Assembly (NCBI RefSeq): GCF_056712565.1
Contig: NZ_CM160072.1
DNA length: 64,000 nt
Direction: 5' to 3' (one strand)
Position 1 is the stretch's first letter. Each line of letters begins with the position of its first letter. Position numbers and translations under genes: made by a program. Of this stretch, positions 9,589-34,923 are shown one piece after another. The notes under the pieces were generated by a model that saw nothing but the letters and a program-made list of their open reading frames with translations, did not search any database and was not told the origin of the DNA.

Positions 9589-11805
9589 ATGGAACTTAGA
9601 TTAAAAAATGTTACCAGTTATAAGAAAGACGCCTTCACAATACTGAATCTTGAAAAAAGAGTAAACATACTATACGGCCAAAATGGTTGTGGCAAATCTA
9701 CCATTTCAAATTATTTCTACGACTCTACACACACAGATTATAACGAGTGTGAATGTACCCTTCTTGACAATTACAAACCTCTTGTTTACAACACTAAATT
9801 TATTGAAGATAACTTCTATAATGCACAGGAACAAAAAGGTGTTTTTACATTAAGTAAAGAAAATGCAGATATTGAAAAACAATTAATTGAAAAAGAAGCA
9901 ATTAAACAGCAACTCACAGAGCAATATAGACAAAAAAAAGGAGTGTTATTGAAATTAGAAGCAGAAATGGAAAAAAAAGAAAATGAATACATCGAATCGA
10001 TCTGGAAAAAAACAGAACCAATCAGAAACTCTGTACTAAAAACCTTAATGAAAGGTAAAGTTGGCTATAAAAGACCTTTTTTTGAGATGATAAAATCATC
10101 CTCACCAATCACCTTTATTAATTTAAATGATATAGCAAAAGAATACTCTATACTATTAGAAAATAGAAACAATGAAACCGCATTAATAACTCCTTTACAT
10201 CCATATACCCCATCAATTGATGATGTAAATACATTAGCAACACCTATAATAGATACAAGCAATAGCTATTTATCAGAAACCATTAATAAACTTCATAATC
10301 TTGACTGGGTAAAAAAAGGTAAAGAACATTATTTAGACGGTTCTACATGTCCGTTTTGTCAGGAAAAAACTATTAGTCACGAATTTTTAAATGCCCTTAA
10401 ATCAATATTTGACGAAAGTTATTCAAAGAAAGTAAAACAGCTCTCAGATATAAAGTCAGTTTATGAGAAAAATACCATATATCATTTTAACGAAATACAA
10501 AACAATATATCATCATGTGCACTAATCAATGAGAAAGATAAAGAGAACATTATTTCCAATATTAAAATATTGCAAAACATTGCAGAAAAAAATTTAATAA
10601 ACATTATTGATAAGATCAACAATCCATCAACATGCGTTACATTAGAAATTGATAAAGAACTAGAAAATCATGTTCAGGAAAGCATAGGCGCTGTTAACAA
10701 GAAAATAAGAGACATAAATGATAAGGTTAAAAAACTCAAAGAGTATGAGAATAAAATCGGAAAACAAGTTTGGGGGGCTCTCCATGCTTTTTGCAGCGAT
10801 GATTTAGAGAATTTATCCAAACACAAAGAAAAATTCTTTGATATCAAAAAGAAAGTTCATGATGAATTAAATAATATTGAGCAACAAGGAAAAGAAAATA
10901 ATCTCACAATAAAAGCATTGCGAGATAAAATATCTAACATTGATTCTACGATAGACTCAATAAACACCCATTTAAAAAATCTAGGGATCTCTGGTTTTTG
11001 TATTGAAAAACATGCAGAAAGAAAAGATATGTACATTATATCTCGACCAGGGCATACAAAAAACCAAAATGTTTATAGATCTCTTAGCGAAGGTGAAAAA
11101 ACACTAATAACGTTTCTTTATTTTTTAGAGTGCTGTAAAGGTAAAACCGATAAAAATGATACCGATAGCAGGGATATTTTTATTGTTATTGACGATCCAA
11201 TATCTAGTCTATCGCAAAACTATGTCTACGACATCGCATCAATTATTCATCACCACATTATAAAAAATGAATTAACAAAGAAGGTATTAATCCTTACTCA
11301 CAATCTTTATTTCTTTCATGAACTTATTAAGCTATCTCCTAAAAGCAGAGAAGACAAACTATTTAAGAAAAACTATTATCTAGGTAGAGTAACGAAAAAT
11401 GATTTTAGTATAATTACTGAAATACAAAAAAACAGCATACAGAATGAATATCAATCTTTGTGGCAAATATTAAAAGATGCAAAAGATGGCAAAGCAAACA
11501 AAATCATAATACCGAATATTATGAGAAACATACTAGAATATTATTTTGCATTTGTTCATAGAACAGATGCTCTACAAGATGAATTAACAAAGTTGGCACG
11601 CGACGATAGCAACAGTGATTTCAAAGCATTCTACAGATACATTAACAGAGGTTCTCACTCTGATGCGGTAAATATTACTGATATGGGCGACATAGACCCA
11701 GATAAATACCTAAAACAATTGAGAACAATATTTTCAGCTACTGGTGACGAAATGCATTATTTAAAAATGATGGACGAACTAGAAGAGGAAAACGTTACCG
11801 CTTAG
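9589..11805 (+). CDS. ABC-type ATPase with coiled-coil/zinc-hook insertion and C-terminal effector-like domain; RloC/PrrC-like candidate anticodon nuclease (stand-alone defence gene)
   Basis: 738-aa ORF; Walker A GQNGCGKST, CPFC in a K/E/N-rich insert, LSEGEK signature, IFIVIDDP Walker B, LILTHN H-loop, C-terminal RNILE...H; strongly AT-rich relative to flanking prophage; sits in the P2 cos-A accessory position. Confidence 0.55.
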   Translation: MELRLKNVTSYKKDAFTILNLEKRVNILYGQNGCGKSTISNYFYDSTHTDYNECECTLLDNYKPLVYNTKFIEDNFYNAQEQKGVFTLSKENADIEKQLIEKEAIKQQLTEQYRQKKGVLLKLEAEMEKKENEYIESIWKKTEPIRNSVLKTLMKGKVGYKRPFFEMIKSSSPITFINLNDIAKEYSILLENRNNETALITPLHPYTPSIDDVNTLATPIIDTSNSYLSETINKLHNLDWVKKGKEHYLDGSTCPFCQEKTISHEFLNALKSIFDESYSKKVKQLSDIKSVYEKNTIYHFNEIQNNISSCALINEKDKENIISNIKILQNIAEKNLINIIDKINNPSTCVTLEIDKELENHVQESIGAVNKKIRDINDKVKKLKEYENKIGKQVWGALHAFCSDDLENLSKHKEKFFDIKKKVHDELNNIEQQGKENNLTIKALRDKISNIDSTIDSINTHLKNLGISGFCIEKHAERKDMYIISRPGHTKNQNVYRSLSEGEKTLITFLYFLECCKGKTDKNDTDSRDIFIVIDDPISSLSQNYVYDIASIIHHHIIKNELTKKVLILTHNLYFFHELIKLSPKSREDKLFKKNYYLGRVTKNDFSIITEIQKNSIQNEYQSLWQILKDAKDGKANKIIIPNIMRNILEYYFAFVHRTDALQDELTKLARDDSNSDFKAFYRYINRGSHSDAVNITDMGDIDPDKYLKQLRTIFSATGDEMHYLKMMDELEEENVTA

Positions 11806-16878: not shown

Positions 16879-17892
16879 ATGGCAATCAAAAAACTCGATG
16901 ATGGTCGATATGAAGTGGACATCCGCCCTACTGGACGTAACGGAAAACGCATCCGTAGGAAGTTTGATAAGAAAAGCGAAGCTGTCGCTTTCGAAAAATA
17001 CACGTTGTACAACCACCACAATAAAGAATGGCTATCAAAACCAACAGACAAACGACGTCTGTCGGAACTGACACAGATCTGGTGGGATTTAAAGGGTAAA
17101 CACGAAGAGCATGGGAAATCTAATCTTGGAAAAATTGAAATCTTCACAAAAATAACGAATGACCCATGCGCATTTCAAATCACGAAATCCCTTATCAGCC
17201 AGTACTGCGCCACCCGAAGAAGCCAGGGTATTAAACCTTCGAGTATCAATCGTGATTTAACATGTATTAGCGGCATGTTTACAGCCCTGATTGAAGCGGA
17301 GTTATTCTTTGGTGAGCACCCTATCAGAGGGACAAAGAGGCTTAAGGAGGAAAAACCAGAAACAGGCTATCTCACACAGGAAGAAATTGCCTTACTGCTT
17401 GCAGCACTTGACGGCGACAATAAAAAGATTGCGATTCTTTGCCTGAGTACAGGAGCACGTTGGGGAGAAGCAGCTCGTTTGAAAGCAGAAAATATCATCC
17501 ATAACCGCGTCACGTTTGTTAAAACGAAAACAAACAAACCACGCACCGTCCCGATTTCAGAGGCTGTTGCCAAAATGATCGCGGATAACAAACGAGGTTT
17601 TTTATTCCCTGATGCTGATTACCCTCGCTTCAGACGAACAATGAAAGCAATAAAACCGGATTTGCCAATGGGGCAAGCCACACATGCACTAAGGCACAGC
17701 TTTGCCACTCATTTCATGATTAATGGAGGAAGTATTATCACGCTACAACGGATACTAGGTCACACGCGGATTGAGCAAACTATGGTTTACGCTCATTTTG
17801 CGCCAGAGTACCTTCAGGACGCCATTTCTCTTAATCCGCTAAGAGGTGGTACTGAGGCCGAGAGTGTCCACACAGTGTCCACAGTAGAGTAA
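16879..17892 (+). CDS. int: Tyrosine integrase
   Basis: 337 aa with C-terminal R...H-x-x-R...Y catalytic signature (HALRHSFATH ... MVYAHF). Confidence 0.95.
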   Translation: MAIKKLDDGRYEVDIRPTGRNGKRIRRKFDKKSEAVAFEKYTLYNHHNKEWLSKPTDKRRLSELTQIWWDLKGKHEEHGKSNLGKIEIFTKITNDPCAFQITKSLISQYCATRRSQGIKPSSINRDLTCISGMFTALIEAELFFGEHPIRGTKRLKEEKPETGYLTQEEIALLLAALDGDNKKIAILCLSTGARWGEAARLKAENIIHNRVTFVKTKTNKPRTVPISEAVAKMIADNKRGFLFPDADYPRFRRTMKAIKPDLPMGQATHALRHSFATHFMINGGSIITLQRILGHTRIEQTMVYAHFAPEYLQDAISLNPLRGGTEAESVHTVSTVE

Positions 17893-17971: not shown

Positions 17972-17998
17972 AATCTCCCTTACACGGGCTTATTTTTT
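17972..17998. other. P2 att core (prophage end, int-proximal)
   Basis: aatctcccttacacgggcttatttttt is the reverse complement of the 27-nt P2 core AAAAAATAAGCCCGTGTAAGGGAGATT as I recall it; 80 nt downstream of int. Confidence 0.55.
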
Positions 17999-32722: not shown

Positions 32723-33523
32723 TCACCACCAGGCGTGGAAGTGGTGAACCGGACCAATACCGTGACCAACTTCCAGCGTGTCGGCCTGGGCTAATGCCGA
32801 TGAAAGCCAGCTTTTTGCCTCCTGTACGGTGTCAGCCCAGTTTGTATGGCGCGGGCGTAGTGCAGCCAACGCCGCAGAGAGCGTACAACCAGTGCCGTGG
32901 GTGTTTTTGGTCATAATGCGCGGTGCAGTAAATCGTTGTTCCCCCTCACGAGTAAACAGCCAGTCCGGGCTTTGCTCATCATCCAGATGACCACCTTTCA
33001 TTAGCACTGCGCCACAGCCCATCGCCAACAGCGATCGCCCTTGTTCCAGCATTTCCTGTTCGGTGCGCGCGTGTGGCGCGTCGAGCAAGGCGGCTGCTTC
33101 GGGCAAGTTTGGCGTTATTAATGAAACATGTGGCAATAATCGACTGCGCAGCGTAGCAACCGCCGATGGTGAAAGCAGCGGGTCGCCGCTTTTTGCCAGC
33201 ATAACGGTGTCGAGTACCACGTTTTGGATCTGATAACGTTGCAACCGTTCTGCCACCGCTTCAACAATATCGGTTTCCGCCAACATACCGATTTTAGTGG
33301 TGTCGATTCGCACATCACTGAACACCGAATCGAGCTGGGCGGCGACAAAATCAGGCTCAATGCGATACACCGACTGTACACCACGGGTATTTTGCGCCAC
33401 CAGTGCAGTAATAACTGAGCAACCATAAGCGCCAAGTGCCGAGAAGGTTTTAAGATCGGCCTGAATCCCCGCACCACCACTCGGATCAGTACCGGCAATC
33501 GTCAGAGCGTTAATTCGTTTCAT
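32723..33523 (-). CDS. thiD: Hydroxymethylpyrimidine/phosphomethylpyrimidine kinase
   Basis: 266 aa. Confidence 0.9.
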
Positions 33524-34308
33524 GCCTGCACCTCCTGCGTCAATTGCCAGAGCGCATCAAGGAAATGTGGAACAAAACTGCCTGGCCCCTCGCTTCTGGC
33601 AACTGCGCGTTCTCCGGCTTGTTTCATCCAGTGACAGGCAGATGCGATATTTTCCAGCGTATCGCCTGGTAGCGCACAACAGGCAGCGACAACCGCCGAT
33701 AGTGCACAGCCAGTTCCTACCACTTTGGTCATTAACGGATCGCCACCGTGAATGCCAATGATACGATGTCCATCGGTAACATAATCCACCTCGCCAGTGA
33801 CCACGACGATTGCGCCAGTTTCCCGTGCCAGTGTTTGTGCAGCGGGTATCGCGTTAGCTGCGGCATCAGTGGTATCCACTCCCCGTCCACCATTAGCAAC
33901 GCCAGCTAATGCCATGATTTCCGAAGCATTACCACGTATGGCGGTTGGCTTATGGGACAGAAGTTCCACACAAAAACGGCGGCGATAATCGAGCGCACCA
34001 ACCGCAACCGGATCAAGCGTCCAGGGCGTTTGTGATCGTGTTGCTTGCTCAACGGCAGCACTCATCGCTTGCGCTCGTGGCTGCGTCAGCGTGCCAACGT
34101 TAATCAACAAGGCACTGGCGATAGCCGCAAACTGACTGGCCTCTTCGGTTTCGATAACCATCGCTGGCGATGCGCCGAGCGCCAGCAAGGTATTGGCAGT
34201 AAAAGTTTGCACCACATCGTTGGTCATGCAGTGCACAAGAGGGGAATGTTGGTGAAAAAGGTGTAACGCGTGCGCAGATTGCGCTGAACTCAGCAGGTCG
34301 ACTTGCAT
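33520..34308 (-). CDS. thiM: Hydroxyethylthiazole kinase
   Basis: 262 aa. Confidence 0.9.
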
Positions 34309-34440
34309 AGTTTGCTCCTGCCATAACGTGAAGAAGCAATGACCTGGTGGTCCGTGACTTCCCTACGCTGGCATTATCCAGATCAGGTGATACGGGTATT
34401 TCTCAGCCTTCACAAAGAAGGGCACCCCGAGTCGTTTGGT
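34309..34440 (-). promoter_or_regulatory. TPP (THI-box) riboswitch in thiM 5' leader
   Basis: Minus strand reads CUCGGGGUGCCCUUCUUUGUGAAGGCUGAGAAAUACCCGUAUCACCUGAUCUGGAUAAUGCCAGCGUAGGGAAGUCACGGACC, then SD and AUG. Confidence 0.8.
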
Positions 34441-34530
34441 TGCGATAATAAATCGCAGAGGAGGATGGTAATGTCCAGCGCACGCGTTGTAAACGGGGAA
34501 AAACGGCAGTTTTACAATCGCGTTAATAAA

Positions 34531-34803
34531 TTATTTGATATAAGAATCCAGCACCTTCAGAACGACATCCAGATCTTCTTCTCGTTTTAGCTCATCCCCC
34601 TGGTGAACGATGTGTTCCGTCAGATGACCTTTAATCACTTCCCGCATCAGACCGTTTACCGCGCCACGGATAGCAGCAATCTGTTGTAAAACTGCAGCGC
34701 ATTCATGCGGTTCGTCGAGCATTTTCTTGAGCGCCACGACCTGGCCCTGAATCTTACTGGCACGCGCTTTCAGTTTCTGTTTATCACGGATTGTATGAGA
34801 CAT
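34531..34803 (-). CDS. rcnR: Ni/Co-responsive repressor RcnR
   Basis: 90 aa. Confidence 0.9.
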
Positions 34804-34851
34804 GGCAACACCTGGTTAACAAGAATATGAAAAATCATAGCACTATTAATC

Positions 34852-34886
34852 TACTGGGGGGTAGTATCAGGTACTGGGGGGGAGTA
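34852..34886. promoter_or_regulatory. Two RcnR operator sites (TACT-G6/7-N-AGTA) in the rcnR-rcnA intergenic region
   Basis: tactggggggtagta (34852-34866) and tactgggggggagta (34872-34886). Confidence 0.7.
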
Positions 34887-34923
34887 GAATCAGATTGCCG
34901 AATTAATACTAAGAATTATTATC

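Follow-up and report, generated by a model that had tools for sequence, protein, structure and literature searches.

A canonical thiM TPP riboswitch in the 5' leader of thiM-thiD on a natural Escherichia coli chromosome

The window, by which we mean the whole 64,000-nucleotide stretch of DNA that was analyzed, carries thiM and thiD on its minus strand. The thiM ORF (hydroxyethylthiazole kinase; 33520..34308, start codon 34308-34306) is annotated in RefSeq, and its product is an equivalog by the NCBIfam models TIGR00694 (332.4 bits against a cut-off of 256.4) and NF006830 (328.6 against 180). The ORF of thiD, encoding HMP/HMP-P kinase, lies on the same strand at 32723..33523 (TIGR00097, 362 bits against a cut-off of 205), and because it overlaps thiM by 4 nt we take it to be co-regulated in a thiMD operon. 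Upstream, also on the minus strand, is rcnR (NF011613, 197 bits), and the gene order around the element is the standard one: yegW-yegX-thiD-thiM / rcnR / rcnA-rcnB / yehABCD. The leader itself, 34309-34440, extends from the 5' end of an aptamer to the base preceding the thiM start codon and so comprises aptamer plus expression platform; RefSeq places a "TPP riboswitch" feature at the coordinates of the aptamer (34343..34439) in identical genomes. An 83-aa plus-strand ORF antisense to it (34339-34590) is unannotated in all RefSeq records examined and was judged spurious.

A consensus scan for sigma-70 promoters gave one candidate on the minus strand at 34465..34493 (TTTACA, 17 nt, TACCAT; 9/12 matches). 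In the region scanned there were 2 weak consensus matches against a shuffle expectation of 0.9 ± 1.0, which is not above chance, and the role of the candidate is uncertain because O157:H7 has unrelated DNA there, up to ~34442. In O157:H7 (our locus L005, Z1836, 500-745 compared with window 34442-34640) and in some other strains, homology to the leader starts abruptly at CAACCAAACGACU, at about window position 34442. There, unrelated DNA with an "HTH-like domain" gene stands in place of rcnR and of everything in the intergenic region upstream, the candidate promoter included. This replacement implies either that the riboswitch is under another promoter in those strains or that its transcription really starts very near the aptamer.

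The first-pass annotation had proposed a thiM TPP riboswitch at 34309-34440 and had named in advance a covariance-model scan with the Rfam TPP model as the check. We ran cmscan with Rfam 15 (4227 families, gathering thresholds) over both strands of the full 64-kb window. Exactly two matches were returned, one of which is RF00059 (TPP) at 34439..34343 on the minus strand, with 71.2 bits against a gathering threshold of 54.3 and E=5e-12, far outside what chance would give. The alignment is untruncated, covering model positions 1-105 of 105, and it is the single RF00059 match in the window, so no other TPP riboswitch is found here. Together with the adjoining thiM and the RefSeq annotation, this full-length match bears the proposal out. 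The same annotation had pointed to the THI-box elements CUGAGA and GGGGUGCCC; both do lie inside the interval, but it left the strand unstated, and all of the signals are on the minus strand, with GGGGUGCCC at 34428..34420, CUGAGA at 34406..34401, and the Shine-Dalgarno (SD) motif GGAG at 34318..34315 followed by a 6-nt spacer and the thiM AUG at 34308..34306. On the plus strand of 34309-34440, CUGAGA, GGGGUGCCC, and the SD are absent and occur as reverse complements only. The element is thus the canonical thiM TPP riboswitch, the well-studied sensor of vitamin B1 (thiamine pyrophosphate) that precedes thiM-thiD on the minus strand.

The aptamer (THI element; 34343..34439, minus strand) was delimited by the full RF00059 model, a pair-by-pair check, and the RefSeq feature. 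Its helices were taken from the Rfam alignment and each pair was checked base by base, and all 23 of the 23 pairs listed are canonical or G-U. They form a three-way junction closed by P1 (34433-34430 with 34359-34356, GACU/AGUC). The pyrimidine-sensor arm, with GGGGUGC and CUGAGA, consists of P2 (34429-34424 with 34399-34393, CGGG(.)U/A(..)CCCG) and P3 (34423-34417 with 34411-34406, GCC(C)UUC/GAAGGC, loop 34416-34412), and the pyrophosphate-sensor arm P4/P5 (34387-34378 with 34371-34362; P4 CCUG/UAGG, P5 CUGG/CCAG) carries ACCUGAUCUGGAUAAUGCCAGCGUAGGGAA. The score exceeds the curated threshold over the full model, and the aptamer sits in cis on the same strand as thiM-thiD, the kind of thiamine biosynthesis, salvage, or transport operon expected of the family, with the thiM start codon 34 nt beyond the Rfam match. 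The window aptamer probably binds TPP, as it is two apical-loop bases apart from the K-12 RNA that was solved and probed with this ligand (PMC1920254).

Those two bases, at 34414..34415, read UU here and GC in K-12 MG1655 by pairwise alignment. A decayed or chance THI-box-like sequence, functionless in this strain, would have nothing to point to beyond these loop substitutions, which fall in the most variable loop and produce the form that is commonest across Enterobacterales. Helices that are all intact, a full-length match at E=5e-12, and about 1000 E. coli genomes with the leader at ≥99% identity (at least 7 at 100%) make that reading vanishingly improbable.

Between the aptamer and the start codon lie three further elements, all on the minus strand. 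The linker hairpin GACC-ACCA-GGUC (34341..34352), which joins the aptamer to the anti-SD, appears in the free fold, and its loop corresponds to the published ACCA loop at nt 96-99. The anti-SD or switching sequence UUGCUUCU occupies 34332..34339, its core CUUC (34336-34333) being published nt 108-111, and the Shine-Dalgarno region AGGAGCAA occupies 34312..34319, with GGAG (34318-34315) at published nt 126-129. For the K-12 thiM RNA, Rentmeister et al. (2007, PMC1920254) give nt 96-99 for the ACCA loop, nt 108-111 for the anti-SD, and nt 126-130 for the SD. All of these landmarks fit the window through the single relation N = 34444 - coordinate.

To imitate the ligand-bound state, the 161-nt leader was folded with the aptamer pairs enforced. 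Under this constraint, the rest of the leader folds into a hairpin of UUGCUUCU (34339-34332) with AGGAGCAA (34319-34312), in which GGAG has a pairing probability of 1.0. Without the constraint, the value for GGAG in the ensemble is 0.26-0.41, so that the SD is mostly free, and in the free minimum-energy fold GGGAAG (34363-34358, from the 3' sides of P4 and P1) pairs with CUUCUU around the GACC-ACCA-GGUC hairpin. The pairings of the anti-SD with the SD and with the 3' side of the aptamer are mutually exclusive in silico, as a thiM-type platform has them. The whole-leader minimum free energy is not unusually stable (z = -0.58); such a weak score is what two competing folds would lead one to expect, and lends no support either. 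In the published probing model, nt 83-86 occupy the anti-SD as long as TPP is missing, and the SD becomes protected once TPP is added (PMC1920254); the claim that a downstream SD is positioned for sequestration agrees with this model as well as with our constrained fold. As modeled, the constrained and free folds reproduce the published thiM mechanism, and every testable defining trait of the TPP family and of a thiM-type translational platform is present.

We regard it as almost certain that the leader of the thiM-thiD operon acts by TPP binding, SD sequestration, and thiM shut-off, with a secondary Rho-dependent layer; none of our results speaks against it. TPP bound by the aptamer (34439-34343) would lock helix P1 and the P4/P5 arm, and the locked aptamer would keep GGGAAG (34363-34358) from pairing with CUUCUUC further downstream. 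Once released in this way, the anti-SD (34339-34332) would pair with the SD (34319-34312), preventing initiation at the AUG at 34308 and turning thiM translation off. When TPP is scarce, GGGAAG and the anti-SD would instead form a longer helix that encloses the ACCA hairpin, so that the SD would be exposed and both thiM and thiD made. As a secondary effect, the untranslated early coding region would expose a C-rich rut site, leading to Rho termination in codons 20-34 and less thiMD mRNA.

TPP riboswitches of the RF00059 family in other phyla use terminator platforms, and intrinsic (Rho-independent) premature termination could be imagined as the main output here too, as in many Firmicute members. 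This is effectively refuted: a search of 34200-34900 on either strand found no terminator-like stem followed by a U-run, and the mere 34 nt between the aptamer match and the AUG are occupied by the anti-SD/SD hairpin. The K-12 literature likewise sees no apparent intrinsic terminator, and the lack of one is in line with translational plus Rho control (PMC5499598).

A different possibility is that TPP binding acts first and directly through Rho termination or mRNA decay, with translational control coming second. In K-12, as shown by Bastet et al. 2017 (PMC5499598), thiMD mRNA drops with TPP, and the translation block exposes a rut near position 200, after which Rho stops transcription inside codons 20-34, at positions 231, 237, and 262. 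The equivalent of that zone in the window is the early thiM coding region at 34207..34283 (minus strand), where the C-rich, G-poor stretch is conserved: 34283-34224 contains 38% C and 10-12% G, codons 20-34 correspond to 34251-34207, and K-12 differs at 5 positions in the 161 nt that begin just ahead of the AUG. By homology, the window would thus share the Rho layer. However, a K-12 fusion with 6 thiM codons is still translationally repressed, whereas mRNA control needs codons 20-34, and the authors' conclusion is that the action of Rho results from repressed translation (PMC5499598). With the SD/anti-SD architecture also conserved, a primary role for Rho or decay is very unlikely. Sequestration of the SD as the primary event is the reading we keep; TPP-dependent translational repression occurs in vivo in K-12, whose platform is identical to that of the window (PMC5499598), and for ligand binding, translational repression, and the Rho layer alike we argue by analogy from the literature on this near-identical sequence.

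Relatives of the leader were collected by scanning species-representative genomes with a degenerate aptamer-core pattern, which gave at least 120 loci; all of those listed come from Enterobacterales or from unnamed proteobacterial MAGs. A ThiM ortholog (58-95% identity) follows ~47-105 nt past the core, typically at ~50 nt, in 101 of the 120 loci listed, and among the listed loci without ThiM and with enough sequence, most (Photorhabdus, Xenorhabdus, Providencia, Proteus, Moellerella, and some Pantoea) have ThiD directly downstream. In Photorhabdus, Xenorhabdus, Moellerella, Proteus, and some Pantoea, no thiM separates the aptamer core from the ThiD-like ORF that comes next. ThiD-linked leaders (L021, L026, L041, L043, L052, L071, L102, and others in our numbering) have a platform of their own, of the CUUUUC / GGAAGGAG type.

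The leader of the window and 64 non-identical leaders with a placeable start codon were aligned (65 sequences). Because the search pattern had fixed 41 of the core's bases, invariance of the aptamer core was not counted as evidence, and the informative regions of the alignment are P1, P3, and the expression platform. Run without constraints on the 65 leaders, RNAalifold returned a consensus of P1-P5 plus an anti-SD:SD hairpin, and 93% of the cells of the OFF structure are paired across the alignment, compared with 34-58% when the partners are slid. Double-sided changes are seen in P3 (3 pairs, 4 sequences) and, across genera, in the linker hairpin (helix 5 of the alignment). For the SD:anti-SD helix, they also occur in two outer P8 pairs, at columns 126-160 and 127-159 (CG in 16 and UA in 9 for the latter), and once at column 134-148; linker indels blur the alignment. 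Of the 65 leaders, 64-65 keep the core pairs CUUC:GGAG and the alternative pairs GGGAAG:CUUCUU, and these pairs hardly vary. The result is compatible with the model, but because the pairs are near-invariant, covariation support for the ON/OFF switching helices is weak. The comparison supports the conservation of a three-way complementarity, with little covariation proof.

Folded one by one with 15 nt of coding sequence and a crude listing of argmax partners, Escherichia-like leaders show a clear thermodynamic switch, with SD pairing rising from ~0.35 to 1.0, and many other genera give an ambiguous result; SD pairing exceeds 0.9 with the aptamer enforced in only 27 of the 65 leaders. By eye, many non-Escherichia thiM leaders (e.g., L122:3619-3776) can be seen to carry CCUGCCCGG, which spans the loop of the linker hairpin and its 5' arm and complements CCGGGCAGG over a perfect 9 nt. 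CCGGGCAGG runs into the SD, the pairing excludes the linker hairpin, and the complementarity is absent from E. coli. It could form an alternative SD-sequestering helix that uses the linker arm rather than CUUC, a variant platform in relatives and not in the window, and may lie behind the ambiguous switch test in other genera.

The alignment also bears on the P3 loop, since the form present in the window (UUCUUUGUGAA) is the commonest, occurring in 23 of the 65 enterobacterial thiM leaders, and the K-12 form occurs in 4. This distribution argues that the difference between the K-12 and window loops is probably functionally neutral.

Over its 64,000 bases, the window differs from the chromosome of the canine isolate Z0117EC0054 (NZ_CP098206.1) by 3 mismatches and 0 gaps, and ST95-type ExPEC/APEC strains, APEC O1 and SF-468 among them, match two of its sub-segments, of 20 and 22 kb, at 100% identity. 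On these identities, the window is a natural ST95-like chromosome. The first-pass annotation had spoken of "this backbone," suggesting something engineered; that description fails, and because the "backbone" is a natural E. coli chromosome, the preserved leader structure to which it drew attention carries no special meaning here. A 361-nt query spanning the leader matches 5424 of the 5426 complete E. coli genomes. The match reaches 100% identity in B2 strains, Nissle 1917, ATCC 11775, and NU14 among them, and there RefSeq marks "riboswitch / TPP riboswitch" at the corresponding bases.

The alignment to Nissle 1917 begins only at 17.97 kb of the window, at 98-99% identity, and the first 18 kb are missing from that strain. 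This part of the window (1 to ~17,950) is a P2-family prophage that extends past the left edge, with an integrase at ~16879-17892 (+) and with cox, replication endonuclease, portal, terminase, capsid, and lysis genes. Nissle 1917 is without this prophage, and homology to that strain resumes at window position 17972, beside yegR. Between the replication endonuclease and portal genes, at what we take to be the P2 variable hotspot, the prophage carries a 738-aa AAA_13 ATPase (9589-11805, +). The ATPase matches the PADLOC candidate defense family PDC-S06 (845 bits, E=1e-254), resembles PrrC and LmuB less strongly, and is probably phage-borne anti-phage cargo at that site.

On the far side of the thiamine genes, the yehK-yehL intergenic region holds a type I toxin-antitoxin pair (53549-53957), consisting of an OrzO-P antitoxin RNA (RF02083, 91.5 bits, 53884-53957, +) and a 29-aa hydrophobic ORF, MDTLTQKLTVLIAVLELLVALLRLIDLLK (53549-53638, -), which has no Pfam match and is presumably ZorO-like. 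Both are unannotated in the RefSeq records examined. Just upstream of this zorO/orzO locus, ~143 bp (53315-53458) have no counterpart in Nissle 1917. In the same part of the chromosome (window 50000-62000), RefSeq marks yehI, yehK, and yehM of Z0117EC0054 as frameshifted pseudogenes, and the same frameshifts are likely present in the window, given only 3 mismatches and no gaps.

The thiM TPP riboswitch described here is an already known, well-studied, and ordinary element. The value of the case is one of calibration, in that a textbook cis-regulatory RNA was picked out of raw sequence and its published mechanism recovered computationally, by Rfam, annotation transfer, constrained folding, and comparative alignment. 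It yields nothing new biologically beyond one small point: across Enterobacterales, the commonest P3 loop is that of the window and not that of K-12.

The closest characterized system is K-12 MG1655, which has the same locus in the same order (rcnR / leader / thiM / thiD), with 261 of 266 bases identical from the rcnR stop into thiM. Helices and junctions of the aptamer are all identical, as are the expression platform, SD, and AUG at 100%; the P3 apical pentaloop, UUUGU in the window and UGCGU in K-12 (34415-34414), is the sole aptamer difference. Two further substitutions lie upstream of the aptamer, at 34496 and 34447, and codon 7 of thiM encodes Ser in the window and Gly in K-12 (34290). 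One could suppose that the B2/ST95 allele is tuned differently from that of K-12 through the UUUGU loop and the changes at 34447 and 34496 beside the likely promoter or 5' end. We consider this improbable; if true, it might mean altered folding kinetics, TPP threshold, or promoter strength, and would be of small interest. Structures of the K-12 thiM aptamer with TPP are, we assume, PDB 2GDI and 2HOJ. The crystallization of that aptamer with TPP is cited in PMC1920254, and the landmark positions of the K-12 "165 thiM" RNA studied there map one-to-one to the window.

Compared with the RF00059 family as a whole, the aptamer in the window shows no difference of consequence: it shares P1-P5 and the conserved junctions and, like many members, is without the optional hairpin between CUGAGA and ACCC. 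The two non-canonical positions flagged by cmscan, a C.A in the outer P1 and a bulged C in P3, are both found in K-12 too. The thiC and thiB/tbpA TPP riboswitches of E. coli belong to the same ligand class and aptamer family but lie at other loci and use other expression platforms, and the reports on them (PMC5234074, PMC11487190, and PMC10578472) describe these as also acting translationally, with added control at the mRNA level.
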